DNA of 64,000 bases. Origin: a virus (taxonomy: Duplodnaviria > Heunggongvirae > Uroviricota > Caudoviricetes). The translations under genes and the position numbers were made by a program. The DNA is taken from IMG/VR virus record IMGVR_UViG_2713896899_000007, positions 1 to 64,000 of that record. One strand, given 5' to 3'. Shown here one piece after another: positions 24,143 through 44,799 of this stretch; the stretch's first letter is position 1, and the number at the start of each line of letters is the position of its first letter. The notes beneath the pieces were generated by a model. The model saw only the letters and a list, made by a program, of their open reading frames with translations, had not been told where the DNA came from and did not search any database.

Positions 24143-25399
24143 CTATCTAGAACCACCAAGAATAACACGGTTTTTGACTGGATACCTACGATGTACTGGA
24201 TAGCCCAATGCGTCTGCACTATGCTCAATGCCACCTGTCTTATCCATATCTCGTGTTCCAGGCTTGTAGATGACTTTTTCCAGTGAATCAATCAAATGCT
24301 TGCACTTCGGATCGATATACAACCGGATATCTCCAGATGCGGTCATCAGCATTCGGTTAACAGCATTAACACGATCCGCAATTGGCGGGTGCTTTTTCGA
24401 ATAATCGACACGTAAGAATCCCTTCTCTTTGAAAATGTCGACGTCAGACTCCCCGCGAGCATGTTGGCGATAAGCACCTGCCGGATCTGGAAATACCGTT
24501 ATCTGTGATTTCCAGCGCCAGAAGCGTCTCTCAAGCTCATCACAAACCTCTGCCGTGTTAGAGGAAAAGAGCACCAATTCATCAATTGCCCATAGCTCAC
24601 CATTTGGCTGAGGTTGCAAAATTACTGAAGACATCGGGTCAATGTTGAAGTCCTGCCCTACCCATATAGGCAACCGAGGGTTGAACTGAAGCGGTTTTAC
24701 ATGCACGTTACGATCGAACGGGTAGTAAACGCGCCCGGACATGTTCTCAAAGCTCGCCAGGTACTCCTGAGCGAACGATTTCGGGTCCATATCGTTCTTA
24801 GCAGCTTCAATTTCCGCCGTAGGTACAAACGGAGAATCGGCAGTTACAAACTGCCAGCTCTTCCACTGTCCCTTTCTTTGCAGCTCTACGTTCTGGCCTA
24901 TAGTCCACAGTTTGTGAAATTCCGAGAAGCCTTTTGGCGTACCAATGATCAGTGCACCGCCGCGTGTCGATGAAAGAGTAGGTCGTAACACCTTGTACCA
25001 GGTGTCAGCCTTCATATCCTGAAATTCATCAAGCACTACAAAATGCAACGCTACGCCGCGCAGAGTGTCAGGCTTATCAGCACCTTTGAGGGCGATCTCC
25101 GAACCGTTCTTCAACACGATTGTCATCGTGGTGTCGTTCTTTTTCCTAACCCACTTACGAGGCAGAACTTCCTGTAGATCGTCCCACAAAATCTGGCGAG
25201 CCATCTGGTAAGTAGGAGCGACATACCAGACTCTTTGCTTTTTTTCCTTTGCCGCCGCACGAATAATAGTGGAGATCGACAACCGGGATTTTCCCCAGCG
25301 TCGACCAGCACAAACAACTTTAAATCGATGCGGAGACTGGAAGACTTTCATCTGTCCAGAATGCAGTTGCACAAGACTGAGCGAGGACGGGATTGCCAT
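24143..25399 (-). CDS. terminase large subunit
   Basis: N-terminal P-loop (CAGRRWGKS), acidic motif (VVLDEF), C-terminal nuclease-like region; gene order. Confidence 0.7.
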   Translation of the reverse strand: MAIPSSLSLVQLHSGQMKVFQSPHRFKVVCAGRRWGKSRLSISTIIRAAAKEKKQRVWYVAPTYQMARQILWDDLQEVLPRKWVRKKNDTTMTIVLKNGSEIALKGADKPDTLRGVALHFVVLDEFQDMKADTWYKVLRPTLSSTRGGALIIGTPKGFSEFHKLWTIGQNVELQRKGQWKSWQFVTADSPFVPTAEIEAAKNDMDPKSFAQEYLASFENMSGRVYYPFDRNVHVKPLQFNPRLPIWVGQDFNIDPMSSVILQPQPNGELWAIDELVLFSSNTAEVCDELERRFWRWKSQITVFPDPAGAYRQHARGESDVDIFKEKGFLRVDYSKKHPPIADRVNAVNRMLMTASGDIRLYIDPKCKHLIDSLEKVIYKPGTRDMDKTGGIEHSADALGYPVHRRYPVKNRVILGGSR

Positions 25400-26031
25400 T
25401 ATTCGTCCTCCCCTTCACTTCCATCATCTGTCGCATCAAATTCGCTTAGAGCTTCTTCTTCCAACGTCTCAAGCAATTCGTCATCGATGATTTCAGGCTC
25501 GTCGTCTTCCTGACGTAATTTCGCCACCTGGGAAGGCGTAAGCTCACCAAATACCAGGTTCGGAATTTCTTCCTCGTCATTTTCAGCATGATCCATGCCC
25601 AATGCTTTGGACGAAACTTCAAAGCATTTTGCAAGGGTATTACTGGCTCTCTGTAAGCTCTTGAGAGAATCCTCAATCGCCCCTAAAGGCTTACCATCAC
25701 GTTTGGCCGTAGTGACTTCGACCATCACCATCTGCCCCAACGCATACGCCCAGCCGTCATAACGTGTACGACGTTCTTCTATCTTTTCCGCACGGGCTTT
25801 AGCGCGAAGCTCTGCGTCAGATTTAAGAGACTCACGAACCATCTTCCCAACAGAGTCCGCGCCTTTCTCTAATCCTCGCTTTTTGAAATGTCTGGAGAGT
25901 GTTTCACGACGAATGCCGTACTCTTCCTCCAGCTTTGAGAGTGTATATTCGCCTGACGTCCATTTGGCTTCAGCTTCGGCCCACTCCGCTGGTGTCAGGC
26001 GAGTTTTTACCTCGTCTTTTTCGACCGTCAT
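25399..26031 (-). CDS. putative terminase small subunit
   Basis: N-terminal HTH-like segment, acidic C-terminus, start/stop coupled to large terminase; GAGGGA RBS. Confidence 0.5.
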   Translation of the reverse strand: MTVEKDEVKTRLTPAEWAEAEAKWTSGEYTLSKLEEEYGIRRETLSRHFKKRGLEKGADSVGKMVRESLKSDAELRAKARAEKIEERRTRYDGWAYALGQMVMVEVTTAKRDGKPLGAIEDSLKSLQRASNTLAKCFEVSSKALGMDHAENDEEEIPNLVFGELTPSQVAKLRQEDDEPEIIDDELLETLEEEALSEFDATDDGSEGEDE

Positions 26032-26039
26032 AGATCCCT

Positions 26040-26225
26040 CTAAAACACACAGAGCGCGTCCATGCGCTCTAAAACAACTTGTTTACTGCGTATGCTAACC
26101 AACTTGTTTTCTGGGGTGTTTAATTAGGTCTGGGCATGTCTTACTAAGCCTGCTTCCGTATATATTTAATAAGTTACTTATTATTTATATATACGGAAGC
26201 AGGTCTTTAAATAAGCTCCCAGACC
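26040..26225. promoter_or_regulatory. structured region upstream of terminase: short hairpin, motif-B-like element and a long imperfect palindrome; candidate late promoter and/or cos/pac region
   Basis: AGAGCGC...GCGCTCT hairpin; CCTGCTTCCGTATATA...TATATACGGAAGCAGG palindrome at ~26150-26205. Confidence 0.35.
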
Positions 26226-26227
26226 GA

Positions 26228-26494
26228 TTACATCACCAGTAACTTCGCTTTGGCTCGACCTAAAGTGGTTAACCCAAGAGTCCGGCGGTGATAGCGATTG
26301 TCACTGCGTTGGCGCGTATGCCCTTTCTCCACCAGCCCCTTTTTTATCAGAGCGCGAATTGAGAACTGAATACTTTGCTTGGTTGTCTTGTACGGCAAAA
26401 CTTCAAGCAATTCGTCCAGATCAAGTAGATGACCTCGCTCATAACCGAGATTGAGCGTTTTGATGATGTCCTTTTGTTTATCGGTTAACGTCAT
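26228..26494 (-). CDS. small basic protein, possible winged-helix DNA-binding protein
   Basis: 88 aa; last gene of the ParB/ABC/GNAT operon. Confidence 0.35.
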   Translation of the reverse strand: MTLTDKQKDIIKTLNLGYERGHLLDLDELLEVLPYKTTKQSIQFSIRALIKKGLVEKGHTRQRSDNRYHRRTLGLTTLGRAKAKLLVM

Positions 26495-26503
26495 GGCAAA
26501 TCC

Positions 26504-27394
26504 TTATGCCGGTAAAGCAATTTCTAACGGTTTATCCAAAGGTTGTTTGTCGAATGCCAGCAGTGGCAGCGTGTCAGGCAGTCGACGACCAAAGTCAGGG
26601 TTTCGATACACACCATACAACGGAGACGTAAAGCTCAGGTTGTGAATGTCCTTGAGCAGCTTCACAATGCTGGCCTCGTCCACCAGACTGTCGGCAATGT
26701 CCTGAATCGTCGTGCCACGATTCCGCCCAGCTTTTGCCAGGGAACTGTTCTTGTGGTAGTCCGCCACCAGATCACGCAGTGCACGGCGACGACGAGACTC
26801 GCTCATTGCGAACAACTCTTTGACGATCGCCTCGTTATCACCCGGGTCAGAACGGAAATGGCGCTGGAATACACGCAGTGCACTTTCATAGCTCTTCGGT
26901 CGCTCAGGGCGGATGAACTTAAACCCCGCTTTCATGGCGAAGGGATTGTATTTGCTCATCGAGGACTGGATCTCAATGATTGGCCGGTCATGCATCCTGC
27001 TAACCAGGTTAATCATTCGATAAGAGACGCCTACGCCACGATACTGAGTATCCACAACTGAGCGACTGATCACCGCAAAGTTGTTATTCACGTACCGACC
27101 CCAGTACTGGTTAGCCACGGTGGTATTAGTGGTTGGTTTCAACTTAGGAAACATGCGGTGGCGAGGTGCCAACAGTAGTTTCGGGTAAGCCATAACCACG
27201 ACGCCCACCAGACGGTCATCAAGTTCGCAGCGATAGTAAGTTGGCGCGAAAGGTTTGCCGTCTGTTTTGTAGTGAAGCGACTTAAGAGCGTGCCAGTCCT
27301 CTACAGTTCCCTTTGTAACAGTCATTCGCTCCAGAAAGTCCAGATGACGCGGAAACTCTTCAGGGCGGTAGCGTTTAATGATGATGTCCGTCAT
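26504..27394 (-). CDS. GNAT-like acyltransferase-fold protein with extra C-terminal domain (tentative)
   Basis: segment VISRSVVDTQYRGVGVS...FAMKAGFKFI resembles GNAT motifs; start overlaps ATPase stop. Confidence 0.4.
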   Translation of the reverse strand: MTDIIIKRYRPEEFPRHLDFLERMTVTKGTVEDWHALKSLHYKTDGKPFAPTYYRCELDDRLVGVVVMAYPKLLLAPRHRMFPKLKPTTNTTVANQYWGRYVNNNFAVISRSVVDTQYRGVGVSYRMINLVSRMHDRPIIEIQSSMSKYNPFAMKAGFKFIRPERPKSYESALRVFQRHFRSDPGDNEAIVKELFAMSESRRRRALRDLVADYHKNSSLAKAGRNRGTTIQDIADSLVDEASIVKLLKDIHNLSFTSPLYGVYRNPDFGRRLPDTLPLLAFDKQPLDKPLEIALPA

Positions 27395-28056
27395 GAATGG
27401 ACCTCATCGTGACTACCATTGTGATATTCCACCTTCACGCGTTCTTTGTAGTGCTTGGTGATCTGCATATCCGGGCGCAGCGCGTTCTTCAGGTCTTCGT
27501 GAGTCGTCGCCACCATTACCGTCGCACCAACCTTTCGAGCGGCACGCTGGAGGTTAGACGCCACAACCTGAGCGGTTACACGGTCGAGAACAGCGCCGAA
27601 CTCGTCAGCAGCCCACACTTTAGCGTCTGACTCAATCAGTTTGGCAATCTTGAGACGATATTTCTGGCCGTCTGACATTTCAGAAGGCTTGCGAACAAAC
27701 AGATATGCATCGTTCAGACCAGCCATAGATAACAACCCAAGCGCATCACTGGTCGTTTTGCCCAACTGATCGATGACGTTAACCTCATTATCGAAGGTAA
27801 AATCATCGATGGAGGCTACAGACAGCCCTTCATCCTTCATCTGTCGTTGCAACTCGCGCAGCACAACGGATTTGCCGGAACCGGATTGGCCGGTGATGTA
27901 CACCACATCGCCCTGCTTCACTTCCAGCTCCAGATTGTCGTAAAGCGTCCACTCTTTTTCGTCCAGGCCAAGCCCGAACGACTCAGCGATTTCCAATGTG
28001 CGCGTGGTTTTATTTACGCGTGTCTGAAACGATACGTTGATGATGTATTTGCTCAT
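27391..28056 (-). CDS. soluble ABC-type ATPase
   Basis: Walker A GQSGSGKS, signature LSDGQKYRL-like, Walker B AADEFGAVLD, H-loop; no membrane domain. Confidence 0.7.
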   Translation of the reverse strand: MSKYIINVSFQTRVNKTTRTLEIAESFGLGLDEKEWTLYDNLELEVKQGDVVYITGQSGSGKSVVLRELQRQMKDEGLSVASIDDFTFDNEVNVIDQLGKTTSDALGLLSMAGLNDAYLFVRKPSEMSDGQKYRLKIAKLIESDAKVWAADEFGAVLDRVTAQVVASNLQRAARKVGATVMVATTHEDLKNALRPDMQITKHYKERVKVEYHNGSHDEVHS

Positions 28057-28721
28057 GCAGCCATCTCCCCGGAAGAGATCTTCTCCGCATATGCCACAAA
28101 TGCGTCTACCCCGCTTTCTCCCGTCATTTCTTCCATGTGGGCAAGCAAATCACCAACAACAATGGCAGAGCCAGCAGGGAGCGTTTTAAAGCCCAATACG
28201 TCGACAACACGTACTTCTTCCGCTGCAACTTCACGACTGATCTCGGTGTGTTCATCCTTCTGTCGTTTAGTTTCTTCGCCAAGATCGATAACTAGCGAGT
28301 CGGTGTCCATTTCTTCTGTCATACTGCCAACGAGAACATTCAACTCACGCTCTTCAAAGCCGAAAACCTCGATATCGTCCAGAACAAGCGACTCAAGCTC
28401 TTTCTGTAGCTTAATTGCATCGTAATCAATGCTGGCAAGTCGGTTATCTTCAAGGCGCTTCGCACGAACCTCGTCATCACTGAGATCATCGCGAACAATA
28501 ACCGGTACGCGCTCAAGTCCAGCAAAAATTGCAGCCTCACGGCGGCCGTGGCCAGTAATAATTACGTCGTTCTTATCGACCGTAATTGGCTGGTCAAATC
28601 CGCGCTTTTTAATGGCTGCGGCTAGATCTCGGATCTGCTGTTCATCATGCTTTTTGGCATTCATCTCATAGGGAATAAGATCTGCCGGGTCGCGATATAC
28701 GATTTCAAACTTTTTGGTCAT
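28053..28721 (-). CDS. ParB/Srx-fold (ParB-like nuclease domain) protein
   Basis: ITGHGRREAAIFAGLERVPVIV motif; start moved to MTKKFEIVY, which has an AAGGAG RBS. Confidence 0.7.
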   Translation of the reverse strand: MTKKFEIVYRDPADLIPYEMNAKKHDEQQIRDLAAAIKKRGFDQPITVDKNDVIITGHGRREAAIFAGLERVPVIVRDDLSDDEVRAKRLEDNRLASIDYDAIKLQKELESLVLDDIEVFGFEERELNVLVGSMTEEMDTDSLVIDLGEETKRQKDEHTEISREVAAEEVRVVDVLGFKTLPAGSAIVVGDLLAHMEEMTGESGVDAFVAYAEKISSGEMAA

Positions 28722-29401
28722 TACATACGCTCCTTGTAGTAGTCGACCAGCCACACCAGAGCCTCACCAGCGTTCTCCATTTCATTACCGGTGTTAATAG
28801 CCTGCTCTTTGATGATGTTTTTTATGGTTTCTGCAACACGATCTGACGCATCGAAAGTTACTTTGAAGCGCATGGTCTGATGTTCCGCACCCACACGTTC
28901 GGTTTTCTCCCGTTTGTCGGTATCGACAGGCTCATCACTACCACGAGACAACGCCTCCAGTGCTTCAAGGTCGATTGCCGCCTCTTTTGCTAAAACCATC
29001 GAGATTTCGTCGTCATACGGGGCGATTTCAGACAGTTGATAGTCAAGTTCTGACTGAATTTCTTCAATGAAGCGTTGCAATGCGATTTGGTCGTCTTCAC
29101 CGTATCGCTCGTTGTCCACCAGTGACATCTGTTTTGCCACGACATCGCTAATTTTGCCCACAGAAAGCACCGGAACCGTTGAAATTCCTTGCTCAATAGC
29201 AGCACGCCAGCGATGTTCGCCGCCGAGGATTTCAAAAAATCCATCTTCAAGTTCACGAGCCAAAATTGGCTTAAAAAAGCCCAATTTTTCGATAGAACCT
29301 TTCAGTTTTTCAAAATTCTGCGCACCAACCGAATTGGTGTTCCAGGTATTCGGGCGAAGGTTGGCAACATCAACCTGCAAAATCGTGATTTTTACATCCA
29401 T
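28721..29401 (-). CDS. ParB/Srx-fold (ParB-like nuclease domain) protein
   Basis: GGEHRWRAAIEQGISTVPVLSV motif; track start is GTG, moved to next ATG (MDVKITIL). Confidence 0.7.
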   Translation of the reverse strand: MDVKITILQVDVANLRPNTWNTNSVGAQNFEKLKGSIEKLGFFKPILARELEDGFFEILGGEHRWRAAIEQGISTVPVLSVGKISDVVAKQMSLVDNERYGEDDQIALQRFIEEIQSELDYQLSEIAPYDDEISMVLAKEAAIDLEALEALSRGSDEPVDTDKREKTERVGAEHQTMRFKVTFDASDRVAETIKNIIKEQAINTGNEMENAGEALVWLVDYYKERM

Positions 29402-29483
29402 TTTATTGCTACAATCCACTAAGTAACTGCTTACTTATTATAATAGCCAAATAACATACAAAAGGCACTAAGGAAAGAGGTTT

Positions 29484-31043
29484 ATGACTGTTCGGATTGT
29501 ATCTAACGCAGTTAATGCGCTTATTTCTGGCGCAGATGACAAGGTAAAGCAACTGGTGCAGCAAATGTTGAGCTACGAAGTCGAGACTGGCGACTGGAAG
29601 GGCACAAGCACGATGTTCAACTGGAGTAAAAACTCGTTCCCTGCTGGCTTTGCCAAGCCTGTAGCGGCGAACTTGAACAAGGCGGGCATCAAATGTGTTC
29701 ATATCCGCAAAGACAAAGCCCCGGCGCTTGGTAAACCAAATCCGGCGGTTAACCCATTCCCATACAATCCTGATTATGCGTATCAGGATCAGACTGTGGA
29801 AACACTGGTTCGAGAGGGAATGATGATTGCGCAGATCGCTACTGGTGGCGGGAAATCTAACGTTGCCTGCAAAGCAGCTGCACGTATCGGTCGAATGACA
29901 TTATTTTTAACAACCCGCTCTGTTCTGATGTTTCAAATGGCCGAAAACTTCCAGAGATCCATCGACTACCGCGCCGAAAATGGCGAACCGTGGTTAAAAG
30001 ACCAAAAGGTTGGAGTCATTGGCTCGGGTGAGTTCCAGGTATCACGACATATCAACGTCGCTACAGTTCAAACTCTTGCAAGTTTCCTCGAAGAACCACC
30101 ACGCGATGCAACACCAGATAAGAAAAGCTACCACCTCAAACGTCGGGAGTTGGTGAAACGCTTCCTTTCAAGTGTCTCTCTTCTTATTCTGGAAGAGGCG
30201 CATGAGTCTTCAGGCTCAAATTTCTATGACATCGCCAGATTATGTGTGAACGCAGACTATCGTCTGGCGCTTACAGCCACGCCGTTCATGAAGGATTCGA
30301 CGGAAGCCAACATGCGCCTGATGGCGGTGGCCGGGCGAATTGAAATTAAAGTCACAGAAAAGTACCTGATTGATCGAGGCATTCTGGCAAAGCCGTACTT
30401 CCTTTATCATAAAGTTGCCTACAAACCAGACGAGGCCAGAATCAAGGCAGAACTTGCCAACAAACACCTCAATTTTAGAGTAGGTATGAGTACTGCCTAC
30501 CAAAAGGCTTATCAGTTGGGGATCGTGTATAATTTGGGACGTAACGAGGCCATTGTTCGCGAAGCATTGCTCTATAAGCAACATTCTCTCAATTGTATGA
30601 CTCTGGTTCGCCTTAAACGCCACGGGCAAATCCTGATGGAAATGATGAAAGAGTCCGGCCTTAGAGTTGACTTCATCTATGGGGAATCTAACCAGGCGAC
30701 AAGGCAAGCAAAGCTGAACAGTTTAGCGTCTGGAGAAATAGATGTTTTAATAGGCTCGACTATTCTGGATGTCGGTGTTGATGTGCCAAGCGTTGGTGCG
30801 GTCATTCTTGCTGGTGGTGGGAAAGCAGAAGTTGAAATGAGGCAGCGTGTCGGTCGTGGCTTACGAGCCAAGAAGAATCAGGCAAACGTGTGTTTTATCA
30901 CTGATTTCATTGACACTAGCAACAAATACCTGTTGTCTCACTCTTATGAGCGAAAACACATCATCGACACCACACCTGGCTTTGCAGAAGGTGTATTGCC
31001 TATTGATGGCGCATTCGATTTTGGAGTTCTGAAACGAGATTAG
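29484..31043 (+). CDS. superfamily-2 DEAH-type helicase
   Basis: motif I ATGGGKS, motif II LEEAHE, motif III LTATP, motif VI QRVGRGLR. Confidence 0.75.
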   Translation: MTVRIVSNAVNALISGADDKVKQLVQQMLSYEVETGDWKGTSTMFNWSKNSFPAGFAKPVAANLNKAGIKCVHIRKDKAPALGKPNPAVNPFPYNPDYAYQDQTVETLVREGMMIAQIATGGGKSNVACKAAARIGRMTLFLTTRSVLMFQMAENFQRSIDYRAENGEPWLKDQKVGVIGSGEFQVSRHINVATVQTLASFLEEPPRDATPDKKSYHLKRRELVKRFLSSVSLLILEEAHESSGSNFYDIARLCVNADYRLALTATPFMKDSTEANMRLMAVAGRIEIKVTEKYLIDRGILAKPYFLYHKVAYKPDEARIKAELANKHLNFRVGMSTAYQKAYQLGIVYNLGRNEAIVREALLYKQHSLNCMTLVRLKRHGQILMEMMKESGLRVDFIYGESNQATRQAKLNSLASGEIDVLIGSTILDVGVDVPSVGAVILAGGGKAEVEMRQRVGRGLRAKKNQANVCFITDFIDTSNKYLLSHSYERKHIIDTTPGFAEGVLPIDGAFDFGVLKRD

Positions 31044-31045
31044 TT

Positions 31046-31324
31046 ATGAGCGAAAAGAAAACAACTTATTGCCAAGTGGCATTGTCTGATAAGGCCAATG
31101 AAAAACTTGGAAAATTTCAAATAAAACTCAAAGAGAAAAAAATCAAGATGTCTAAGGCTGAAGTTATCAATGCCATTCTGGAGACGATGACTATGGCTGA
31201 ATTTGACAAAGTCACATCTGCCGTTGGGGTTTCCGCTAAGACGCGTGAGAAAATCATGCGCATCTATGAAAACTCCAATATGACAAAAAAAGATCTAGAG
31301 GAAATACTGAGCAGGTTGCCGTAA
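31046..31324 (+). CDS. hypothetical small protein
   Basis: 92-aa ORF coupled to helicase stop. Confidence 0.4.
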   Translation: MSEKKTTYCQVALSDKANEKLGKFQIKLKEKKIKMSKAEVINAILETMTMAEFDKVTSAVGVSAKTREKIMRIYENSNMTKKDLEEILSRLP

Positions 31325-31389
31325 CATTTCATATTTACCCCCTATCAACTAATTCTATGATGTGCTCACTTGTTAGAAAGGAGCACATC

Positions 31390-31956
31390 ATGAGTTGGTT
31401 AAAAGAATTATCATTTGTTGACACCACTGGCGCTAAGAAAAATCATTCTTTCTGGAAAGTCAGCGATCCTTCTGATTTTCTTGTTGGTGCTAATGCTGCT
31501 TTTGAATTGCTTAACTTTTATCAACGTTATCCTGAAATGAAACACAGTCCACTCCTGTACAGAATAACAAACGATATGAATAGGTCTGGTTTATTATCAA
31601 GTGAGTCAGCGAAAGGCTTTTTTAGCAAAATTACGCCACACATATCATTCGATGCAGCAAACGAAATTGATTGTCTATCCACGAAACCTCAAGAACAATT
31701 ATCTGTACCACCTGAGAAAAAACAAAGACGAATTGCCAGCATTGAAAATATATCGAAAGAGCTTCGCACAACAACGTTGAGGCTGCTGAACTTTCTTACG
31801 CTACTTAATTGGATAGATGATCAAACATTGATTCCATCAACCGATGCGTTGGATAACAGAGTACTTAGGCTGAACAAAAAATCGCAATTTGGTTTTGTGT
31901 TCACCAAAAAAGGTGAAGATTTAATCAAAAGAAAATATAGATTATTGAATGATTAA
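31390..31956 (+). CDS. hypothetical protein
   Basis: start moved to MSWLKEL, which has an AAAGGAG RBS. Confidence 0.4.
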   Translation: MSWLKELSFVDTTGAKKNHSFWKVSDPSDFLVGANAAFELLNFYQRYPEMKHSPLLYRITNDMNRSGLLSSESAKGFFSKITPHISFDAANEIDCLSTKPQEQLSVPPEKKQRRIASIENISKELRTTTLRLLNFLTLLNWIDDQTLIPSTDALDNRVLRLNKKSQFGFVFTKKGEDLIKRKYRLLND

Positions 31957-32101
31957 TAGTCTACATGCAGGTGTATGAGAGCACCTGCATGTGATATTCA
32001 TCACATTTTTTGAAGTACACACCTCCGGCTGAAAAAATTTCTTGATTGGCAGAACGATATTTGTAGGCTTTTCAATTGATAACTAAGGTCGGATACTGTA
32101 G

Positions 32102-32590
32102 ATGAGTATTTCCATAAACAAAATAATTAACTCTTTACGACATAAAATATCACATGGAAAAGATGTTCTTTTTAAAGACAAATATTATCTATTCAACCTA
32201 GAGTTGTACAAATGCACAAAATTTTATATCACTCGGAACCGTAAATATTCAGCTTCAATCACAAAAGACATGAAGAAAATCTCTTCAGAAGAGTACTTCA
32301 TATCACATATTTATATCTACCCATTTAAATTAGAACCATTAAATATAATTCTTCCAACAATAAAAGGGGTTGAACTTGAAGGTTATACTTTAAGCTCTAA
32401 CTTTAATGATATGGGTGTACAAAAACCAGGGACAAGGTCATACTACGCCTACAAAGTAAAATGCAATAACTACAACGCACTTAACATGCTAATCAGCAAA
32501 CTTGAAACGGAGATAGTCGAAGGAAATCTAAATGATGATCATGAAAAATTAGAACAAATAGAAAAACTTAGAAAGTGTGATGTTAAATAA
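32102..32590 (+). CDS. hypothetical protein (very AT-rich gene)
   Basis: 162-aa ORF, Lys/Asn/Ile/Tyr-rich. Confidence 0.4.
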   Translation: MSISINKIINSLRHKISHGKDVLFKDKYYLFNLELYKCTKFYITRNRKYSASITKDMKKISSEEYFISHIYIYPFKLEPLNIILPTIKGVELEGYTLSSNFNDMGVQKPGTRSYYAYKVKCNNYNALNMLISKLETEIVEGNLNDDHEKLEQIEKLRKCDVK

Positions 32591-33205
32591 TTGGATTATC
32601 ATGATATGAAAATGAAAATTTCGTTACTCCTTGCTTGTATATGCCTCCCGGCGTTTTCCGCCAACGCATTATCAGATTTCGTCTCTGACATGCAAAAAAC
32701 GTACAGCATGTTTACCTCCGAAGACGTAGTAGAATACAAATCACGAGGTCTGAATCAGCCAGTTTGGTTCAGATTCTCAGACAACGCAGAAGAAACAATA
32801 CTTAATGGAGGAAAAGAAAGATTACGGTTGCAAATTAACGGGACCGCTGTACCAGAAAACGTTAATGTAAACTCTGACGAAGCCATGAAGCCATCTGGAA
32901 TTGTTTTAGAAGTTCAAGACGGCACACTTTACTGTGATGAAATGGCTACAACAGGTTGCCAAGTAAACATTAGGGTTGGCAATGAAGAGCCTATCGTTAC
33001 TTACGCCAAGGCTGAAGGGAATACAAGTGGAAAGGTATTGTTTATCGATGAAAATATCTCAAAACGTATCGTTCGTGACATACAGAAAACAGCTAACTCT
33101 AAATCCGTCGATAAAAAAATCTATGTTGAGGTTCCCTTCTTTGTCGTTGGTAACAAAGAATTTAAATTTGGGTTGCTGAAAACACCTCTAAGAGTATCAG
33201 AATGA
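32591..33205 (+). CDS. exported protein with N-terminal signal peptide
   Basis: MKMKISLLLACICLPAFSANA signal-like N-terminus; coupled to neighbours. Confidence 0.45.
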   Translation: MDYHDMKMKISLLLACICLPAFSANALSDFVSDMQKTYSMFTSEDVVEYKSRGLNQPVWFRFSDNAEETILNGGKERLRLQINGTAVPENVNVNSDEAMKPSGIVLEVQDGTLYCDEMATTGCQVNIRVGNEEPIVTYAKAEGNTSGKVLFIDENISKRIVRDIQKTANSKSVDKKIYVEVPFFVVGNKEFKFGLLKTPLRVSE

Positions 33206-33726
33206 GAACATTGGACATCACCTACGGCATACCGGCTGAAGTCTGGCCGCGAGACTACGAACATGCTGAAAACATACTTATGTTCTGGCGGAAGAACAAC
33301 ATTCCTGTAAGAGTCACGCTTGAAGACGGTCAGGTGTTTTGCATGTACGTTCAGGGGACAATGCCTTCCCGCAATAAGCTAGATTTATGCCCGCTTCCAT
33401 ATGATAAAGAAAATCGTATAAGACTCCCACTTGAGCGCATTAGCACAATTGAATCAGGTGTAATCGATGGCATTGCTCGCGAGTTCAAAGGTAGGCTAAC
33501 AATACATCCAGACTATGTTGACAATCAGCCATCACGCCGTGACTTTTTTGCGATATGTCGCAAGGCTTATCAAAACGACCAATCTATAAGGGTCTACATG
33601 GCAGACGGTCGTGAAATTGAAGGGGTGTCAAGAGGCGTTGATGCTTGCCAGGTCACTCTTAAGTTAGAAGACGGCAGAAAAATACTTGTTTTCTTCGATT
33701 GGGTTGAACGAATCCTTCCATTTTAA
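33202..33726 (+). CDS. hypothetical protein (two beta-rich repeat halves)
   Basis: 174-aa ORF overlapping upstream stop. Confidence 0.4.
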   Translation: MRTLDITYGIPAEVWPRDYEHAENILMFWRKNNIPVRVTLEDGQVFCMYVQGTMPSRNKLDLCPLPYDKENRIRLPLERISTIESGVIDGIAREFKGRLTIHPDYVDNQPSRRDFFAICRKAYQNDQSIRVYMADGREIEGVSRGVDACQVTLKLEDGRKILVFFDWVERILPF

Positions 33727-33739
33727 ATCTATAAGGGTA

Positions 33740-33768
33740 ATAACCGGCTAAGCCCGGTTATTATTTTA
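33740..33768 (+). terminator. rho-independent terminator-like hairpin
   Basis: AACCGG-CTAAG-CCCGGTT stem-loop followed by T-rich run. Confidence 0.5.
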
Positions 33769-34012
33769 CATGCCATTCATTTAAAACTCTTTCAATGCCA
33801 CTCTGTATAAATATATAAGGTTAAAGGCCCGAATTGATTATTTATTTAGGGAACACCTTCGACGATCTCGCTTTTATTTCTAGGACTTTCACCCCTGCAA
33901 AAAATTTAAAAAAAACACTTGCAATCTTTTTTCACGTATCGATAATTGAACTCGTCGAAAGCGAGCTGGCTAACGACAGTAAAAAATAAATTCATTTTAA
34001 TTTTTCGTAAGG

Positions 34013-34672
34013 ATGTCCATCATGGCTAACATTATCATTTCTAAAAAATCCATCATTGAAGCTGCTTCCATTGTATCCGATGAACTGCGCGAAAAAGCAG
34101 ATCTGGCAACTCAAACATATAACGAACATTATAAAAATGGTACGCACACTAAAGCAGACAAAGCAAATATGCAAGCTGCGACCACTAAACTTGCTTACTT
34201 CATCAACAACGTCGTAAACGCAGTAGAAGACGAAAAATTATGCTCTGTTTTCTACTATGCGATTAAAGCAAGCAAACAAGCGCCAGAAGTATTTTTCCGT
34301 GATGCTATGACTAATAGTTATTCACTGGAAAAACTGGTTTATCTGGTTAAATCCATTAAAGCTGGTAAATGCGTTTATTCCGTCGCTGATATGTCAGGAT
34401 CTCGTGTATTCGCTTTAATCGATATGATTAACGACGAGATCGACACGTTCACCAATGGCGCTGTTTTCGATTTAATGAATGAAGCTAAAAAAGCGTGCGA
34501 AATTAAATTGGACGCTGGCTATACTCAAGCCAACCAGTTGATCAATCTTTGCGAACGTCTCGGACTTGTTGAAAAAGTCAAAGGAGCTGGGAGCGCCAAA
34601 GCTGGTACGCAGCAATATCGCTTCATTAAAAATGATTTCTACAATTATTTAGCTGATGCTTTTAAAGCGTAA
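34013..34672 (+). CDS. hypothetical protein
   Basis: 219-aa ORF with TTGCAA-16-GATAAT promoter-like sequence upstream. Confidence 0.45.
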   Translation: MSIMANIIISKKSIIEAASIVSDELREKADLATQTYNEHYKNGTHTKADKANMQAATTKLAYFINNVVNAVEDEKLCSVFYYAIKASKQAPEVFFRDAMTNSYSLEKLVYLVKSIKAGKCVYSVADMSGSRVFALIDMINDEIDTFTNGAVFDLMNEAKKACEIKLDAGYTQANQLINLCERLGLVEKVKGAGSAKAGTQQYRFIKNDFYNYLADAFKA

Positions 34673-34683
34673 TTAATGAAATC

Positions 34684-34705
34684 AAGCGCCCACTATGGGC
34701 GCTTT
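34684..34705 (+). terminator. hairpin GCGCCCA-CTA-TGGGCGC (copy 1)
   Basis: perfect 7-bp stem, 3-nt loop, after the 219-aa gene. Confidence 0.5.
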
Positions 34706-34721
34706 AAAGGAGCTTTCAAAA

Positions 34722-34925
34722 ATGGTCAGCTATGACAAGATCCGCGCGGAATATCGCGCAAAGTATCGCGCTTATAAACTGGAATTAATCGACGATTTGA
34801 TCGCGCAACGCGACCAATTAAATTTTACGTTTTCTGATTTGCTTAACAGTAAACGAGATTGTAAGCGTAAGCGTGAATATTTACGTTTAAGCGCATTAAT
34901 CGGAAAACTTCAAAATTCTATTTAA
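34722..34925 (+). CDS. hypothetical small protein
   Basis: start moved to MVSYDKIR, which has an AAAGGAG RBS. Confidence 0.35.
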   Translation: MVSYDKIRAEYRAKYRAYKLELIDDLIAQRDQLNFTFSDLLNSKRDCKRKREYLRLSALIGKLQNSI

Positions 34926-34945
34926 TTTTTTTAAGGAGCTTAATC

Positions 34946-35173
34946 ATGGTTATTTTCATCTCTGGCGTAAATATCAATAATCATACTCTTGTTTATGATA
35001 TTGCTGGTTTAGCTGGATATGCTCTAAGTTCTGAAGTGGTTGATGAAACAACGTTTAAAATAAACATCAATGACGTAGAACATAGAGCGCGCGTAGGAAT
35101 CAATGAAGCTGATGTTACTTTAATGCTTCAAGAATTTTTAAACGCTGGCTTTAATATTCACTTAGAAAAATAA
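34946..35173 (+). CDS. hypothetical small protein
   Basis: 75-aa ORF with AAGGAG RBS. Confidence 0.4.
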   Translation: MVIFISGVNINNHTLVYDIAGLAGYALSSEVVDETTFKININDVEHRARVGINEADVTLMLQEFLNAGFNIHLEK

Positions 35174-35180
35174 AAACAAT

Positions 35181-35320
35181 AGCGCCCACTATGGGCGCTT
35201 TTTTCGTTTACAATACACCCACCATAACGCGCCAATAATGGCGCTTTTTTATTGTCTTTAACTCACTCCAACAACATAAAAATAAGCGCCAAAATAACGC
35301 CATAGACGCGCTTTTATATC
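35181..35320 (+). terminator. stack of three to four terminator-like hairpins
   Basis: GCGCCCACTATGGGCGC+T6, GCGCCAATAATGGCGC+T6, further GC hairpin with T-run. Confidence 0.55.
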
Positions 35321-35399
35321 CTTGTCAGTACATACCCATTACTTAACACATTAACGCGCTTAAAATGCGTTATATTGCGCTATAACGTATGGCTAATCA

Positions 35400-35785
35400 T
35401 TAATTTTTATTCTTGCTATGTGATCCGCGTTTAATTGTCGGCGCGGATCGGCATTTTGTTTTGTTCCGTATCCGCTCGCGTATTATGTGCGCGTGATTTT
35501 TCACATAATCACACCACTTAATCACGTATGTGATTATGCTACGAAAGAAATCTGGATGTCTCAGGCGACGAAAGTCATCATAATTTTCCCCGCTCACCTG
35601 TCCGACAACCGCTGGTTGGATTCCACCAGCTTCCCGATGTTTTTTCTACATAAAGGCGAATGCAGCCGTTTCCCGAAAAAATCCTGGCCGTTTCCCGTCG
35701 GCTCATGAATGCGTTCCTTGCCGTTTCTGAAAATTTCCCTGCGGCAGCTGGTGGCTATAGAGAAAGGGCCGTTTCTGGCCCTCTT
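35400..35785. promoter_or_regulatory. candidate origin/partition region: palindromes, DnaA-box-like 9-mers and iteron-like direct repeats (cluster 1)
   Basis: GATCCGCG...CGCGGATC palindrome; TGTGATTAT-like boxes; four or five GCCGTTTC(C/T) repeats spaced ~22-35 bp. Confidence 0.4.
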
Positions 35786-35790
35786 CTCAG

Positions 35791-36273
35791 TTACACGCCA
35801 TCAAGGATGTGGATGCGGTTGCTTGCGTATACATTCAGCATAAAGTTAGCGCAAAACAGTTTCCATGTATCAACGCCAGCGGTATACGTAATGTTTTTGC
35901 ATTTAATTGCATTGTTGGCGATCTGCGTAGCCAGTGATATGGCTTCATGGTCAGTAAAGCCGTATGACGTTTGGGTCTTCATCCAGACAGAAATCTGCGT
36001 AGCGAACTCAATCAGCTTGGACTGGCAGAATCGCCCGGAGCGCACCGGAAAGACGAACGTTCCGAATCCAGAATTTACCACATACGCTTTCTCAAATACC
36101 CGAGAGTAACGACGATTGCCAATGATGTCGCGTGCAATAATGCATTTTTCTTGTTCTGACAGTTCTACCGTCTCATTGTGACGCCAGGCACCAAGTACTC
36201 GTTTTTCAATGTCAGAGAACGTTACAGCGATATTGCCATGTGCGGGTGCGTTTACAGTAGCGATAAAATTCAT
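35791..36273 (-). CDS. hypothetical protein
   Basis: 160-aa ORF with AAGGAA RBS and motif B upstream. Confidence 0.45.
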   Translation of the reverse strand: MNFIATVNAPAHGNIAVTFSDIEKRVLGAWRHNETVELSEQEKCIIARDIIGNRRYSRVFEKAYVVNSGFGTFVFPVRSGRFCQSKLIEFATQISVWMKTQTSYGFTDHEAISLATQIANNAIKCKNITYTAGVDTWKLFCANFMLNVYASNRIHILDGV

Positions 36274-41397: not shown

Positions 41398-41550
41398 AAT
41401 AGAACGCAGAAAACAAATTGTTTTAGGGGCTGAGTAAATCAGAAGGGATTGCGTCTATATGAAAATGCCCAGCAATACGCTGGGCATTGTGAAGAATGGT
41501 TGTTTAGTTACTTAACTTGGTGGCCTGGTTTAGCACCAGCATCCGGGCTT
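41398..41550. repeat. direct repeat copy 2, overlapping the true 3' end of metG
   Basis: homologous to 40540-40690. Confidence 0.6.
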
Positions 41551-43541: not shown

Positions 43542-43698
43542 AGTAGGCATTACTTCTTTGTAGTGAAAAGGGGCTTGATAGTAACAAAATGGCCTTATGT
43601 CTGCCATGTGATAACAGCATTTCTCATAAATGATTAAATGTCGTAGCTGGAGTACACTACAAGGCGACAATTGCGCAAATTAAAATAAAGGAGACGGG

Positions 43699-44799
43699 AT
43701 GAGCGAGTCCAAATCGCCGGATGCCCTGAGAGCAATGGTAGCCGGTACGCTGGCTAATTTTCAGCACCCAACCCTGAAACACAACCTGACTACGCTTAAA
43801 GCGTTACACCATGTTGCGTTGATGGATGACACACTGCATGTCGAACTAATCATGCCTTTCGTGTGGAATAAGCCTTTTGAAGACCTGAAAGAGCAATGTA
43901 GTGGTGATCTGCTCCGTATCACTGGCGCAAAGGCTATTGACTGGAAGCTGTCGTACAACATTGCCACGCTTAAGCGCGTCAAAAACCAACCAGGCATTAA
44001 TGGTGTTAAGAATATTATCGCCGTAAGCTCAGGCAAGGGCGGTGTAGGCAAATCGTCCACAGCAGTAAACTTGGCACTGGCGTTGGCTGCTGAAGGTGCG
44101 AAAGTTGGTATTTTGGATGCCGATATCTACGGGCCATCAATACCAACCATGCTGGGCGCGGAAAACCAACGTCCAACCTCACCGGACGGTACTCACATGG
44201 CACCTATCATGTCTCATGGCCTGGCAACCAATTCAATTGGCTATCTGGTCACCGACGACAATGCAATGGTGTGGCGTGGACCGATGGCCAGCAAGGCGCT
44301 GATGCAGATGTTGCAGGAAACACTGTGGCCTGATCTGGACTATCTCGTTCTCGATATGCCGCCGGGCACTGGTGATATTCAGTTGACGCTGGCGCAGAAC
44401 ATTCCTGTAACTGGTGCGGTTGTGGTAACTACGCCGCAAGACATCGCGCTGATCGATGCGAAGAAAGGCATTGTGATGTTCGAAAAAGTCGAAGTGCCAG
44501 TACTGGGTATCGTTGAAAACATGAGTGTGCATATTTGCAGTAACTGCGGTCATCACGAGCCAATTTTTGGCACCGGTGGCGCACAGAAACTGGCCGAGAA
44601 ATACAACACGCAGTTGTTAGGCCAAATGCCACTTCATATCTCTCTTCGTGAAGATCTGGATAACGGAACACCAACCGTTATTAGTCGTCCAGATAGTGAA
44701 TTTACGGCTATTTATCGTGACCTCGCAGATCGCGTTGCTGCCCAAATGTATTGGCAAGGTGAAGTAATACCTGGCGAAATCGCATTCCGCGCAGTGTGA
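43699..44799 (+). CDS. apbC: Fe-S cluster carrier ATPase ApbC/Mrp (host gene)
   Basis: deviant Walker A SGKGGVGKS and CxxC motif; divergent from metG as in E. coli. Confidence 0.95.
   Translation: MSESKSPDALRAMVAGTLANFQHPTLKHNLTTLKALHHVALMDDTLHVELIMPFVWNKPFEDLKEQCSGDLLRITGAKAIDWKLSYNIATLKRVKNQPGINGVKNIIAVSSGKGGVGKSSTAVNLALALAAEGAKVGILDADIYGPSIPTMLGAENQRPTSPDGTHMAPIMSHGLATNSIGYLVTDDNAMVWRGPMASKALMQMLQETLWPDLDYLVLDMPPGTGDIQLTLAQNIPVTGAVVVTTPQDIALIDAKKGIVMFEKVEVPVLGIVENMSVHICSNCGHHEPIFGTGGAQKLAEKYNTQLLGQMPLHISLREDLDNGTPTVISRPDSEFTAIYRDLADRVAAQMYWQGEVIPGEIAFRAV

Follow-up and report, generated by a model that had tools for sequence, protein, structure and literature searches.

A ParB, ABC ATPase and GNAT gene unit beside the terminase genes of an SSU5-like phage-plasmid and its possible role in DNA modification

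What does a phage gain from an operon that joins two ParB-fold proteins, a soluble ABC ATPase and a GNAT-like protein directly next to its terminase genes? The original prediction placed these genes in a lambdoid phage, in the position of Q and the lysis cassette, and offered three functions: DNA modification or anti-restriction, a packaging accessory, or partition/defence. The window analysed here, 64,000 nucleotides of the Caudoviricetes record IMGVR_UViG_2713896899_000007, is an SSU5-like phage-plasmid and not a lambdoid phage, and all matching places in E. coli genomes (262/262) lie on plasmids. Judged from sequence comparison, the operon is one split form of a ParB+ABC+GNAT unit that is fused in many bacterial and archaeal viruses; this unit is ancient and recurrent and has so far been unnamed. 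The module reaches far beyond one phage, a point that the prediction had missed. Its interpretation as a whole is partly supported: among the suggested functions, DNA modification or anti-restriction is now best supported, packaging stays alive, and partition and defence are unlikely.

Layout and domain content of the operon

The five predicted minus-strand genes between 29401 and 26228 were all recovered by the ORF check and in the RefSeq annotation of an identical plasmid (Table 1). Their start/stop coupling was likewise borne out, with an overlap of 1 nt between ParB1 and ParB2 and of 4 nt at both the ParB2/ABC and ABC/GNAT junctions; the exception is a gap of 9 nt between the GNAT and wHTH genes. 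Each has homologues, down to about 41–58% identity, in distant phages, and the five genes are genuine and not chance ORFs. Gene order is conserved in nickie, RHEph10 and prophages at this level of identity, and the predicted domains (two ParB, ABC ATPase, GNAT, wHTH) agree with Pfam, PHROG and Foldseek evidence. Both ParB proteins are acidic (pI about 4.5), whereas the GNAT protein is basic. The terS-like and TerL genes lie downstream on the same strand and mark the conserved position of the module.

Table 1. Coordinates of the operon, its motifs and its neighbours in the window
Feature	Position	Strand	Remarks
TerL	24143-25399	-	Terminase_6N/6C; packaging context only
terS-like HTH protein	25399-26031	-	phrog_867; packaging context only
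Intergenic region, wHTH gene to terS-like gene	26032-26227	none	palindrome and hairpin
Winged-helix (wHTH) protein	26228-26494	-	88 aa, basic, pI 10.2
GNAT-fold acyltransferase-like protein	26504-27394	-	296 aa, basic, pI 9.8
GNAT acyl-CoA loop RGVGVS	27023-27040	-	sequence read
ABC-type ATPase, soluble	27391-28056	-	221 aa
ABC H-loop TTHED	27493-27507	-	sequence read
ABC Walker B VWAADE	27601-27618	-	sequence read
ABC signature SDGQ	27664-27675	-	sequence read
ABC Walker A GQSGSGKS	27868-27891	-	sequence read
ParB2	28053-28721	-	222 aa, acidic, pI 4.53, short ParB_N protein
ParB2 motif LEDNR	28440-28454	-	sequence read
ParB2 motif GHGRREA	28533-28553	-	sequence read
ParB1	28721-29401	-	226 aa, ATG start, acidic, pI 4.55
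ParB1 motif VDNER	29105-29119	-	sequence read
ParB1 motif GGEHRWRAA	29198-29224	-	sequence read
Divergent control region, ParB1/helicase	29402-29483	none	82 bp
UvsW/XPB-like SF2 (DEAH) helicase	29484-31043	+	519 aa; Pfam ResIII, DEAD, Helicase_C; phrog_16

ParB1 carries a ParB/Srx N-terminal domain (Pfam ParB_N, E 3.3e-13; phrog_723, E 2e-79), and its residues 7-154 align with Spo0J of PDB entry 1vz0 (E 2.7e-9). The two motifs that had been quoted for the ParB pair, GGEHRWRAA and GHGRREA, are both found. Of the two ParB proteins, ParB1 resembles the canonical CTPase ParB/Noc proteins more, and its GEHR motif recurs in the ParB domain of archaeal triple fusions. ParB2 (ParB_N, E 1.5e-8; phrog_930, E 1e-112) also has a strong match (E 5e-32) to the ParB-like N-terminus of phrog_498, which PHROG labels as a DNA methyltransferase family. 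It shares a D(L/I)xxxGF linker with Axumite gp1, LE4 gp14 and Jace gp85, and adjoins the ABC gene like the single ParB of other phages. A central HTH domain was not detectable in ParB2 and is uncertain in ParB1, and neither protein matched a DGQHR-type NCBIfam model. The CTP-binding motifs are degenerate, with GEHR in ParB1 and GHGR in ParB2 against GERR, an observation that speaks against a DNA-modification role.

The ABC ATPase (Pfam ABC_tran, E 3.3e-13; phrog_293, E 2e-59) has a complete catalytic motif set and no membrane partner encoded nearby, as had been proposed, and shares its N-terminal motifs with the ABC half of the fused ABC-GNAT family (alignment A2). The GNAT fold of the 296-aa protein was also confirmed, with a core at about residues 1-165, a conserved helical/beta extension at residues 170-296, and an acyl-CoA loop of the form R-G-x-G-x-S/A that is kept from E. 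coli phage-plasmids to archaea. Given the confirmed fold, the conserved loop and the acyl/CoA enzyme genes linked to the family, the protein looks catalytic. Profile searches allotted the genes to no known system: PADLOC, Pfam and NCBIfam gave single-domain matches only, without an entry naming a ParB+ABC+GNAT system, and no published description of one was found in the literature search. The prediction was right that no named system matches.

The small basic protein (phrog_900, E 2e-45) is wHTH-like as expected. Its AF2 model has a winged-helix, H-S-H-H-hairpin topology, Foldseek ranks the LexA DNA-binding domain first (probability 0.99 but E 0.14), and weak matches include Sta1/Lrs14, the LexA DNA-binding domain and a CARF-associated wHTH. 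The lineage of SSU5, nickie and RHEph10 keeps the wHTH gene directly 3' of the GNAT gene, with a small gene at the equivalent position in loci L002-L005. It is followed by a long AT-centred palindrome with arms at 26115-26165 and 26187-26237, in which the core CTGCTTCCGTATATAT is repeated inverted, and by a terminator-like hairpin at 26050-26071. Long inverted repeats occupy the equivalent position in L002, L003 and L005 and are absent from L004. The SSU5 and Cyrano records were opened 62 bp beyond the wHTH stop codon, within this intergenic region, which may serve as operator, terminator or packaging site. The wHTH protein is probably an operon regulator or a binder of the palindrome before terS.

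On the other side of the operon, the control region predicted to be about 80 bp long separates the ParB1 ATG from the divergent helicase start by 82 bp. It contains the dyad TAAGTAA-CTGC-TTACTTA at 29420-29437, within which TAAGTAAC lies (7 occurrences in the window versus 1.3 expected), and a TATAAT hexamer at 29439-29444 facing the helicase; a consensus scan called no sigma-70 promoter in the 82 bp. The helicase is kept as a neighbour in L002-L005. It does not belong to the core unit, because hits in the 78 other bacterial-type viral loci were limited to 2 ORFs, and its conservation next to the operon is confined to the SSU5-like lineage.

Distribution, fusions and neighbours of the unit

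Phages of Gordonia, Rhodococcus and Leptospira encode ABC and GNAT as one fused protein, with the ParB gene directly upstream. A ParB gene occupies this upstream position in 61 of 78 viral loci and occurs anywhere in the locus in 72. Examples of the ABC-GNAT fusion are Jace gp86, LE4 gp15 and Axumite gp2, and archaeal proteins of this architecture number in the thousands. ParB_N, ABC and GNAT are joined in a single polypeptide of about 630 aa in no fewer than 496 protein clusters, and Bathyarchaeia elements carry such triple fusions; DNA methyltransferase or restriction-modification genes lie close to these triple fusions.

The neighbouring genes include candidates for a supply of acyl groups. 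Jace carries an aspartate decarboxylase and a CoA-transferase-III-like gene directly 3' of the GNAT (14 ORF matches each across the 78 loci), and in Axumite a Formyl_trans_N-like gene directly follows the GNAT part. Such acyl-donor or group-transfer enzymes are what one would expect in a variable modification pathway. The window's own operon contains no acyl-donor pathway gene, which counts against DNA modification.

Candidate functions of the unit

We tentatively favour, with rather less than even confidence, a ParB-activated, ATP-dependent acyl-CoA transferase that would modify phage DNA before packaging. The precedents are the ParB-dependent phage thymine dioxygenases, DpdA/DpdB and Mom, and a partnership of ParB-like proteins with DNA-modifying enzymes is well established. 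Short phage ParBs without a DNA-binding domain are required, in vivo and in vitro, as activators of post-replicative thymine dioxygenases, in whose clusters ParB and terminase genes are among the commonest neighbours (PMC13229309; 10.1101/2025.08.14.668559). DpdA needs DpdB, a ParB-like ATPase (PMC12839542). Further points in favour are the union of the three activities in one unit, the catalytic look of the GNAT, the strong match of ParB2 to phrog_498, the contrast in charge between the acidic ParBs and the basic GNAT, the methyltransferase or restriction-modification genes near the triple fusions, and the Tad2-like gene in the RHEph10 module. The presence of the unit in phages described as lytic (PMC6078989) and in integrated archaeal elements without a nearby TerL also fits DNA marking better than a role in partition only or packaging only.

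We infer DNA as the target, the chemistry and the part of each subunit as follows. The module genes would be expressed together with the packaging genes, and the basic GNAT subunit would contact replicated phage DNA. ATP-driven dimerisation of the ABC subunit may clamp or remodel the DNA and thereby bring a base into the active site, by analogy with the NTPase domain of the TmcA/NAT10 nucleic-acid acetyltransferases, with the acidic short ParB proteins as putative obligate activators or loaders. The GNAT would then move an acyl group onto DNA, from acetyl-CoA or, in phages with the aspartate decarboxylase and CoA-transferase-like gene, possibly from another acyl-CoA. DNA packaged already modified would be protected against restriction in the next host. 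No report of a modified base in SSU5-like phages was found in the literature searched. Phage GNATs are usually assigned protein substrates in Aravind-type analyses, which counts against a DNA target (PMC5512222).

Also against DNA modification, the tight TerL linkage and the order ParB -> ABC-GNAT -> TerL fit a role in packaging. Working with the terminase, a ParB/ABC/GNAT complex might recognise or prepare the pac region or concatemer, load TerS/TerL or clear DNA, the GNAT being regulatory or structural. HNH proteins, which assist HK97-type terminases, offer a comparison. We consider such an initiation accessory unlikely, yet it stays alive because the terminase linkage is strong. The window, nickie, RHEph10, Axumite and LE4 all carry the module immediately upstream of terS/TerL, and in the window the long palindrome separates it from terS. 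Of 60 non-redundant loci, an estimated 40 or more, a figure derived from overlapping per-family counts, have a terminase (Terminase_6N, TerL_ATPase or GpA type) as the first large ORF downstream. Among archaeal-type loci, TerL directly precedes ABC-GNAT in 45 of 80 viral contigs, and the two genes often overlap or lie 7 bp apart. In some phages no gene interrupts the order ParB -> ABC-GNAT -> TerL, and in L124, L148 and L169 TerL follows ABC-GNAT with no room for TerS. However, several of these phages have a TerS of their own (Terminase_4 in 6 loci; the terS-like gene in the window), no TerL was found within 7-9 kb of the triple fusions of integrated Bathyarchaeia elements, and DNA-modification clusters lie near terminases as well. 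A factor for packaging alone would hardly account for the conserved acyl-CoA loop or for the linked genes (aspartate decarboxylase, CoA-transferase-like, formyltransferase-like), and a ParB-like protein acting in packaging was not found in the literature searched.

It is improbable that the unit is a virion-delivered or late-made effector like P1 Dar/DdrB, protecting incoming DNA or attacking host functions, with the GNAT acetylating a host protein or small molecule. An LE4 ParB-like protein was detected by LC-MS/MS in CsCl-purified virions, a finding that fits a virion-carried effector and speaks against DNA modification, but the LE4 authors themselves allow contamination, and the LE4 virion proteins named in the text consulted do not include ABC-GNAT (PMC6078989). 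DdrB-type ParB/Srx domains occur among late/virion genes and are head-packaged in P1, and for phage GNATs in such settings a role in protein modification is predicted (PMC5512222); in addition, a Tad2-like anti-defence (anti-Thoeris) gene is inserted in the RHEph10 module. On the other hand, the PHROG matches are to ParB-partition and ParB-methyltransferase families and not DdrB-like, an ATP-dependent ABC dimer would be an odd cargo, and the architectures examined included no MuF, portal-associated or other delivery-domain fusion.

A DNA-guided protein acetyltransferase seems quite improbable as well. It would ride phage DNA and acetylate DNA-bound proteins, thereby altering how strongly these bind DNA during replication or ahead of packaging; candidates are bacterial HU or H-NS, archaeal Alba or histones, and terminase or portal. 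Members of the family are numerous in archaea that have chromatin proteins and are occasionally fused to PolB and TFIIB, which suggests that they act at DNA-bound machines, and the terminase linkage is compatible with this reading. Against it, no neighbourhood points to a target, and the accessory genes suggest unusual acyl groups more than plain acetylation of proteins.

A partition or maintenance cassette with the ATPase standing in for ParA is highly unlikely and largely refuted: the element is kept as a plasmid, ParB1 has a ParB/Noc-like N-domain (GEHRWRAA) and RefSeq calls it a 'ParB/RepB/Spo0J family partition protein', but, unlike in ParABS, there is no ParA, with the ATPase being ABC-type and not ParA/MinD (CbiA E 0.0018, 18.7 bits, cut-off 25.4), TIGR00180 parB_part scores 43 bits against a cut-off of 58.45, neither an HTH (lacking in ParB2) nor parS is demonstrated, RHEph10 has a separate ParA-like gene elsewhere, and the module is kept at the terminase, not the replicon, in Gordonia phages and in LE3/LE4, described as lytic (PMC6078989). 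Equally remote is anti-phage defence or superinfection exclusion on the pattern of PARIS, Gabija or Septu, in which an ABC ATPase works with a nuclease. An ABC ATPase with a ParB-like 'nuclease' resembles ATPase-nuclease defence pairs, but the weak PADLOC matches of the ABC domain to mad3, mad8 and PtuA reflect generic P-loop/ABC similarity without a system-level match, and a fixed position beside structural genes as lineage core in lytic phages is unlike accessory defence cargo.

Comparison with known systems

The clusters of the ParB-dependent phage thymine dioxygenases (5mYOX) resemble the operon in several respects: a short ParB with nucleotide-binding and C-terminal domains and no DNA-binding domain lies beside an enzyme that needs it, the clusters often adjoin terminase genes, and D or H stands in for the glutamate of GERR, ParB2 having GHGR (PMC13229309). 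They differ in that the predicted partner here is an ABC ATPase with a GNAT instead of an Fe/2-oxoglutarate dioxygenase, and there are no hmU-processing genes. In the DpdA/DpdB 7-deazaguanine (Dpd) system, a ParB-like NTPase similarly gives an ATP-dependent step to a base-modifying enzyme, as summarised in PMC12839542, but the chemistry is transglycosylation and not the acyl transfer proposed here, and the window has no TGT homologue. ParB-methyltransferase fusions (phrog_498; Bce_0392-type) also combine a ParB domain with a DNA-modifying catalytic module, whereas here ABC and GNAT replace the N6/N4 methyltransferase and the parts are on separate polypeptides.

The adenine methylcarbamoylase Mom of phage Mu has a GNAT fold, but there is no sequence-level relationship, its structural similarity to the window's GNAT is no better than that of dozens of ordinary protein or small-molecule GNATs, which counts against DNA modification, and it works without ParB or ABC ATPase. 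The RNA cytidine acetyltransferases TmcA/NAT10/Kre33 couple a P-loop NTPase to a GNAT for ATP-dependent base acetylation. The comparison is at the level of the GNAT fold; their NTPase is helicase-like and not ABC, and their substrate is tRNA or rRNA. For COG2401, 'ABC-type ATPase fused to a predicted acetyltransferase domain' (MK0520-like), a purely descriptive label, the literature search found no paper on a ParB partner, terminase linkage or viral context. The match to COG2401 is at profile level over both halves, with motifs shared and the COG2401 name used in source annotations, and the ABC ATPase and GNAT protein of the window are its split homologues.

Operon anatomy and genomic setting

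All five minus-strand genes named in the original prediction, encoding two ParB-like proteins, an ABC ATPase, a GNAT-like protein and a winged-helix (wHTH) protein, were present as described, and a 100% identical RefSeq plasmid carries the same annotation. The proposed start/stop coupling holds throughout (one 1-nt overlap, two 4-nt overlaps and one 9-nt gap), the strand is continued downstream by a terS-like gene, the large terminase gene (TerL) and the portal gene, and the DEAH helicase gene is indeed divergent, starting 82 bp from ParB1 on the opposite strand. A lambdoid context was ruled out by megablast, which matched the window to Escherichia phage Cyrano with 98.7% and to Salmonella phage SSU5 with 83% identity. 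Since the window belongs to an SSU5-like phage-plasmid and not to a lambdoid prophage, the earlier remark that the operon occupies the place of a lysis cassette and Q is not applicable. The E. coli plasmid p009_B is 100% identical to the window, and the region is carried by 250 of 5426 complete E. coli genomes (~4-5%), where it is plasmid-borne every time.

Two further regions of the window deserve mention. HD-domain and S24-peptidase genes flank full-length copies of the methionine-tRNA ligase gene (metG) and the Fe-S carrier gene apbC, an unusual phage cargo. On the right-hand side of the helicase gene, the GC content falls to 0.37-0.42 vs about 0.47-0.50 elsewhere in a stretch full of small hypothetical genes from which Cyrano diverges, and which is probably a variable accessory region.

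Location of the module genes and of other features in the window and in related loci
Feature	Location	Strand	Length	Remarks
ParB1	28721-29401	minus	226 aa	
ParB2	28053-28721	minus	222 aa	
ABC ATPase	27391-28056	minus	221 aa	
GNAT-like protein	26504-27394	minus	296 aa	
wHTH protein	26228-26494	minus	88 aa	
wHTH-terS intergenic region	26032-26227			
Long palindrome	26115-26237			AT-centred
TAAGTAAC sites, dyad-symmetric	26173, 29420, 62720			TAAGTAA-N-TTACTTA
TAAGTAAC sites, other	21632, 22534, 32996, 41507			
Low-GC stretch	30000-36000			
metG and apbC	41514-44805			
Rhizobium phage RHEph10, insert	L005 5893-6195			Tad2-like (DUF2829) anti-Thoeris gene
Ectothiorhodospira prophage, inserts	L002 7961-8999			Phage_gp49_66 and RyR-domain genes
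Gordonia phage Axumite	gp1-gp2			ParB, ABC-GNAT; then Formyl_trans_N-like gene; then terminase
Axumite, Formyl_trans_N-like gene	L091 1805-2452			after ABC-GNAT; annotated 'tRNA-methyltransferase'
Leptospira phage LE4				ParB, ABC-GNAT, three small genes, TerL
Rhodococcus/Gordonia phage Jace	gp85-gp86			then the two genes of the next line
Jace, aspartate decarboxylase (PanD-like) and CoA-transferase-III-like genes	L093 6101-7212			directly after ABC-GNAT, also in a subset of viral contigs
Viral contigs, second ABC-GNAT paralogue	L094 3035-4138; L099 3636-4739			~1 kb downstream of the first
Archaeal ABC-GNAT joined to family-B DNA polymerase	L062 3580-7362		1260 aa	IMG/VR contig; fusion or gene-calling read-through

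The 88-aa protein adopts a winged-helix fold, with the LexA DNA-binding domain as its best structural match (probability 0.99, E-value non-significant). Between its gene and terS lies a long palindrome with 51-nt arms of 71% complementarity and a near-perfect core, CTGCTTCCGTATATAT, that recurs in inverted form. At this position, three distant relatives (L002, L003 and RHEph10) also have long inverted repeats; Pseudomonas phage nickie has none. In GenBank, SSU5 and Cyrano are both opened within the palindrome region, 62 bp beyond the stop codon of the wHTH gene. The region may serve as a pac/cos site, operator or terminator. The motif TAAGTAAC occurs seven times in the window against 1.3 expected occurrences, a number reached in none of 100 shuffles, and no longer consensus was found around these seven sites. 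A single dimeric regulator might use the three dyad-symmetric sites as operators. Of the remaining sites, at least two overlap or abut tandem stop codons and may be coincidental.

Domain assignments of the module proteins

Both ParB proteins belong to the ParB/Srx superfamily, as had been predicted from their motifs: each shows a GxxR nucleotide-binding motif within an N-terminal ParB fold, and ParB_N (PF02195) scored 49.9 bits for ParB1 and 35.0 bits for ParB2 (Pfam gathering cut-off 26.3). The solved N-domains of Spo0J, ParB and Noc were matched with best E values of 2.7e-9 (ParB1) and 8.9e-6 (ParB2), the alignment being restricted to the N-domain in ParB2 and extending weakly to residue 154 in ParB1. 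In comparison with the GERR and ENLQR boxes of CTPase clamps, the CTP-binding/hydrolysis motifs are partly substituted, reading GEHR and DNER in ParB1 and GHGR and EDNR in ParB2. The partition family TIGR00180 (parB_part) remained below its cut-off of 58.45 for both proteins (43.3 and 43.0 bits), which are acidic with a pI of about 4.5. ParB2 also had a strong match to phrog_498, whose annotation is DNA methyltransferase, in the ParB-like N-terminal portion of that family.

The ATPase combines the complete ABC motif set in one domain (GQSGSGKS, SDGQ, VWAADE and TTHED), in agreement with the initial reading, and was recognized by ABC_tran with an E value of 3e-13 (50.9 bits vs a cut-off of 25); its CbiA/ParA score of 18.7 bits lies below the cut-off of 25.4. 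The suspected lack of a membrane partner was borne out by the operon and every conserved neighbourhood examined, none of which contains a membrane-protein gene.

The 296-aa protein has the GNAT fold that had been assigned to it. It carries an acyl-CoA pyrophosphate-binding loop (Q/R-x-x-G-x-G/A) as R119-G-V-G122-V-S, of which R119 and G122 are invariant across 39 homologues and are also kept in the fused bacterial and archaeal forms, and it is basic (pI 9.8) with a conserved C-terminal extension of 125 residues. A sequence search of the PDB returned only noise (AlkD at E about 1), and Pfam and PHROG gave no match to the Mom family; Mu Mom was among the structural matches, with a likeness at the generic GNAT level only. 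RefSeq/GenBank widely label this protein 'ABC transporter ATP-binding subunit', as does phrog_886. We rejected this misleading label as mis-transferred onto a GNAT-fold protein, and it looks as if it comes from relatives in which ABC and GNAT domains are fused.

Conservation, domain fusions and linkage to terminase genes

The proposed check of gene-neighbourhood conservation showed the order to be kept, at about 41-58% protein identity, in an Ectothiorhodospira prophage, a metagenomic chromosome, nickie and RHEph10. In all of these, the divergent helicase gene is followed by ParB1, ParB2, ABC, zero to three small inserts, GNAT, the small wHTH gene, a terS-like gene, TerL and portal; the module is a core of this lineage. 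ABC and GNAT genes are also present in Stenotrophomonas and Xanthomonas phages, next to genes annotated as ParB. The inserts of RHEph10 and the Ectothiorhodospira prophage, situated between the ABC and GNAT genes, are of the anti-defence or moron type.

A profile of the GNAT protein retrieved 899 representatives, many of them 450-500 aa long with ABC_tran at the N-terminus and GNAT at the C-terminus. Such ABC-GNAT fusions are already labelled COG2401, 'ABC-type ATPase with predicted acetyltransferase domain', in the sources; both halves are homologous to the separate proteins of the window, whose ABC ATPase fits the fusion consensus GDxVYITGxSGSGKS...LSDGQKYR. In bacterial phages, a short ParB gene precedes the fusion. 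Among the 78 IMG/VR loci retrieved with bacterial-phage ABC-GNAT fusions, 61 have ParB immediately upstream in the same orientation, and 72 have it anywhere in the locus. ParB, ABC and GNAT are united in one polypeptide of ~630 aa in at least 496 protein clusters, many of them of Bathyarchaeia origin; the ParB domain of these proteins resembles ParB1 in its DGEHR motif. Such fusions speak most strongly for a joint action of the parts.

The contexts of the triple fusion were assessed at five metagenome or genome loci of Bathyarchaeia type. None has TerL within 7-9 kb; a DNA methyltransferase (C5 or N6/N4) or type I/II restriction-modification genes are nearby in four, an integrase in two and an HhH-GPD glycosylase in two. 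Between one and four small genes of 92-188 aa stand directly upstream of each fusion, and the last of them overlaps its start. In a scan of viral contigs, nearly all proteins were of the two-domain type, and the ParB region was matched in two of 80 (partly in L176, fully in L177). Several variants were also seen: some viral contigs have a second ABC-GNAT paralogue, and archaeal homologues (P0165, P0176, P0205, P0154 and an ORF of L062) have an intein/LAGLIDADG insertion in the ABC domain or are joined to a family-B DNA polymerase (a 1260-aa ORF of an IMG/VR contig) or a TFIIB repeat, which may be true fusions or gene-calling read-through.

When the nearest downstream ORF with a minimum length of 330 aa was taken within 4 kb of each bacterial pair, it encoded a large terminase in at least 40 of the 60 non-redundant cases, an estimate from overlapping per-family counts (Terminase_6N 26, Terminase_3 13, TerL_ATPase 8, GpA_ATPase 6). 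The association therefore spans unrelated TerL families, and it appears to far exceed that of a random gene in a 40-110-kb genome. In archaeal viral contigs, the two-domain ABC-GNAT directly follows TerL in 45 of 80. Often no further gene separates it from the contig end, which it reaches or misses by a few hundred bases (fewer than 600 bp remaining in 30 of 80); this may mark a genome terminus or provirus boundary. None of the five operon proteins matched TerS families. A Terminase_4 (TerS) gene between ABC-GNAT and TerL in six loci implies a separate small terminase in at least some of these phages, and the window has its own terS-like gene (phrog_867), which overlaps TerL and whose product found no match in a PDB sequence search.

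Possible functions and comparison with known systems

Genes of acyl/CoA chemistry adjoin the fusions. Between ABC-GNAT and TerL, four aspartate decarboxylase and five CoA_transf_3 non-redundant ORFs were found, and each of the two corresponding Jace genes was matched by 14 ORFs in the 78 loci. Together with the Formyl_trans_N-like gene of Axumite, these accessory genes suggest variable acyl donors. Since such genes adjoin it and the acyl-CoA loop is universally conserved, the sequence data argue that the GNAT protein would function as an acyltransferase and draw on donor pathways that vary.

We tentatively favour the reading that the module acylates phage DNA, although we give it somewhat less than an even chance: the ParB proteins would activate, and the ABC ATPase would drive, an acyl transfer onto phage DNA shortly before packaging, with restriction evasion as the purpose. 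The anatomy of the module and its genomic associations are what the analysis demonstrates; DNA as the target and acyl transfer as the chemistry are what we infer from the acyl/CoA genes, the conserved loop, the phrog_498 match, the precedents of Mu Mom, a GNAT-fold protein acylating a DNA base, and of TmcA/NAT10, in which GNAT acetylation of nucleic-acid bases is coupled to an NTPase, and from known ParB partners of modifying enzymes. Experiments have shown that post-replicative thymine dioxygenases, whose clusters have ParB and terminase genes among their commonest neighbours, depend on short phage ParBs that lack a DNA-binding domain (PMC13229309; 10.1101/2025.08.14.668559), and DpdB is a ParB-like ATPase serving DpdA (PMC12839542). 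If DNA acylation applies, the ParB-assisted DNA-modification systems, a class now emerging, would gain a member whose enzyme is new and whose chemistry probably is as well. Doubtful, yet worth considering, is the wider idea that ParB, ABC and GNAT form an ancient, unrecognised class of DNA acyl-modification machines of bacterial and archaeal tailed viruses, which would place acetyl and, in some phages, beta-alanyl-like or other acyl groups onto bases in an ATP-dependent manner just before packaging, a new kind of natural DNA modification.

A direct role in packaging, which we regard as unlikely, would agree with the position beside the terminase genes, where ABC-GNAT and TerL are in some cases immediate neighbours. 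It leaves both the CoA-pathway genes and the TerL-free archaeal contexts unexplained. That the module supplies a virion-carried effector seems quite improbable; the Dar/DdrB precedent fits (PMC5512222), and the ParB-like protein of LE4 was detected in purified particles, although the authors there concede possible contamination (PMC6078989). Acetylation of proteins on DNA is compatible with the fold data, and we give it little credence.

Should the module modify DNA, the few natural DNA modifications would be joined by one with acyl-type chemistry and a mechanism driven by an ABC ATPase (a new kind of modification, if the chemistry is confirmed). The module would also widen the reach of the newly found principle that short ParBs activate DNA-modifying enzymes, and its role would account for a conserved core block of the SSU5-like phage-plasmids, common elements in clinical Enterobacteriaceae. 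The same block is present in many actinophages, leptophages and archaeal viruses, and consequences would concern restriction evasion, the host range in phage therapy, sequencing artefacts and enzyme tools. A packaging role would instead establish a new class of terminase cofactors common to bacterial and archaeal viruses. With four small genes and a culturable E. coli/Salmonella phage, the two outcomes are directly testable.

The impression that the combination has no name was upheld, since no paper or curated model was found that describes the triad, its fusions or the terminase linkage, and literature on COG2401, MK0520, the predicted acetyltransferase domain, ParB with terminase, or ParB with ABC and acetyltransferase did not describe the module. 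In hundreds of genomes, its proteins are annotated only as hypothetical, as 'ParB-like' or, wrongly, as 'ABC transporter'. An anti-phage defence function, one of the possibilities raised originally, is very improbable, as the defining features of known systems fail: PADLOC-DB v2 gave no system-level match, only scattered domain-level ones (MTase_II to the ParB domains; mad3, mad8 and PtuA to the ABC domain; none for GNAT). Partition, likewise raised, is equally remote because the defining features of ParABS fail, with no ParA, sub-threshold ParB scores and presence in lytic phages. Whereas ParABS pairs ParB with a ParA/MinD-type Walker ATPase, the adjacent ATPase here is ABC_tran; and whereas ParABS is tied to replicons that need segregation, homologous pairs of ParB and ABC-GNAT occur in LE3 and LE4, described as lytic (PMC6078989), and, at the terminase, in Gordonia phages. 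The module differs from the phage Mu Mom family in that its GNAT protein lacks sequence-level membership, and from ABC transporters, the usual database label for its ABC and GNAT proteins, which we dismissed, in having no permease partner.
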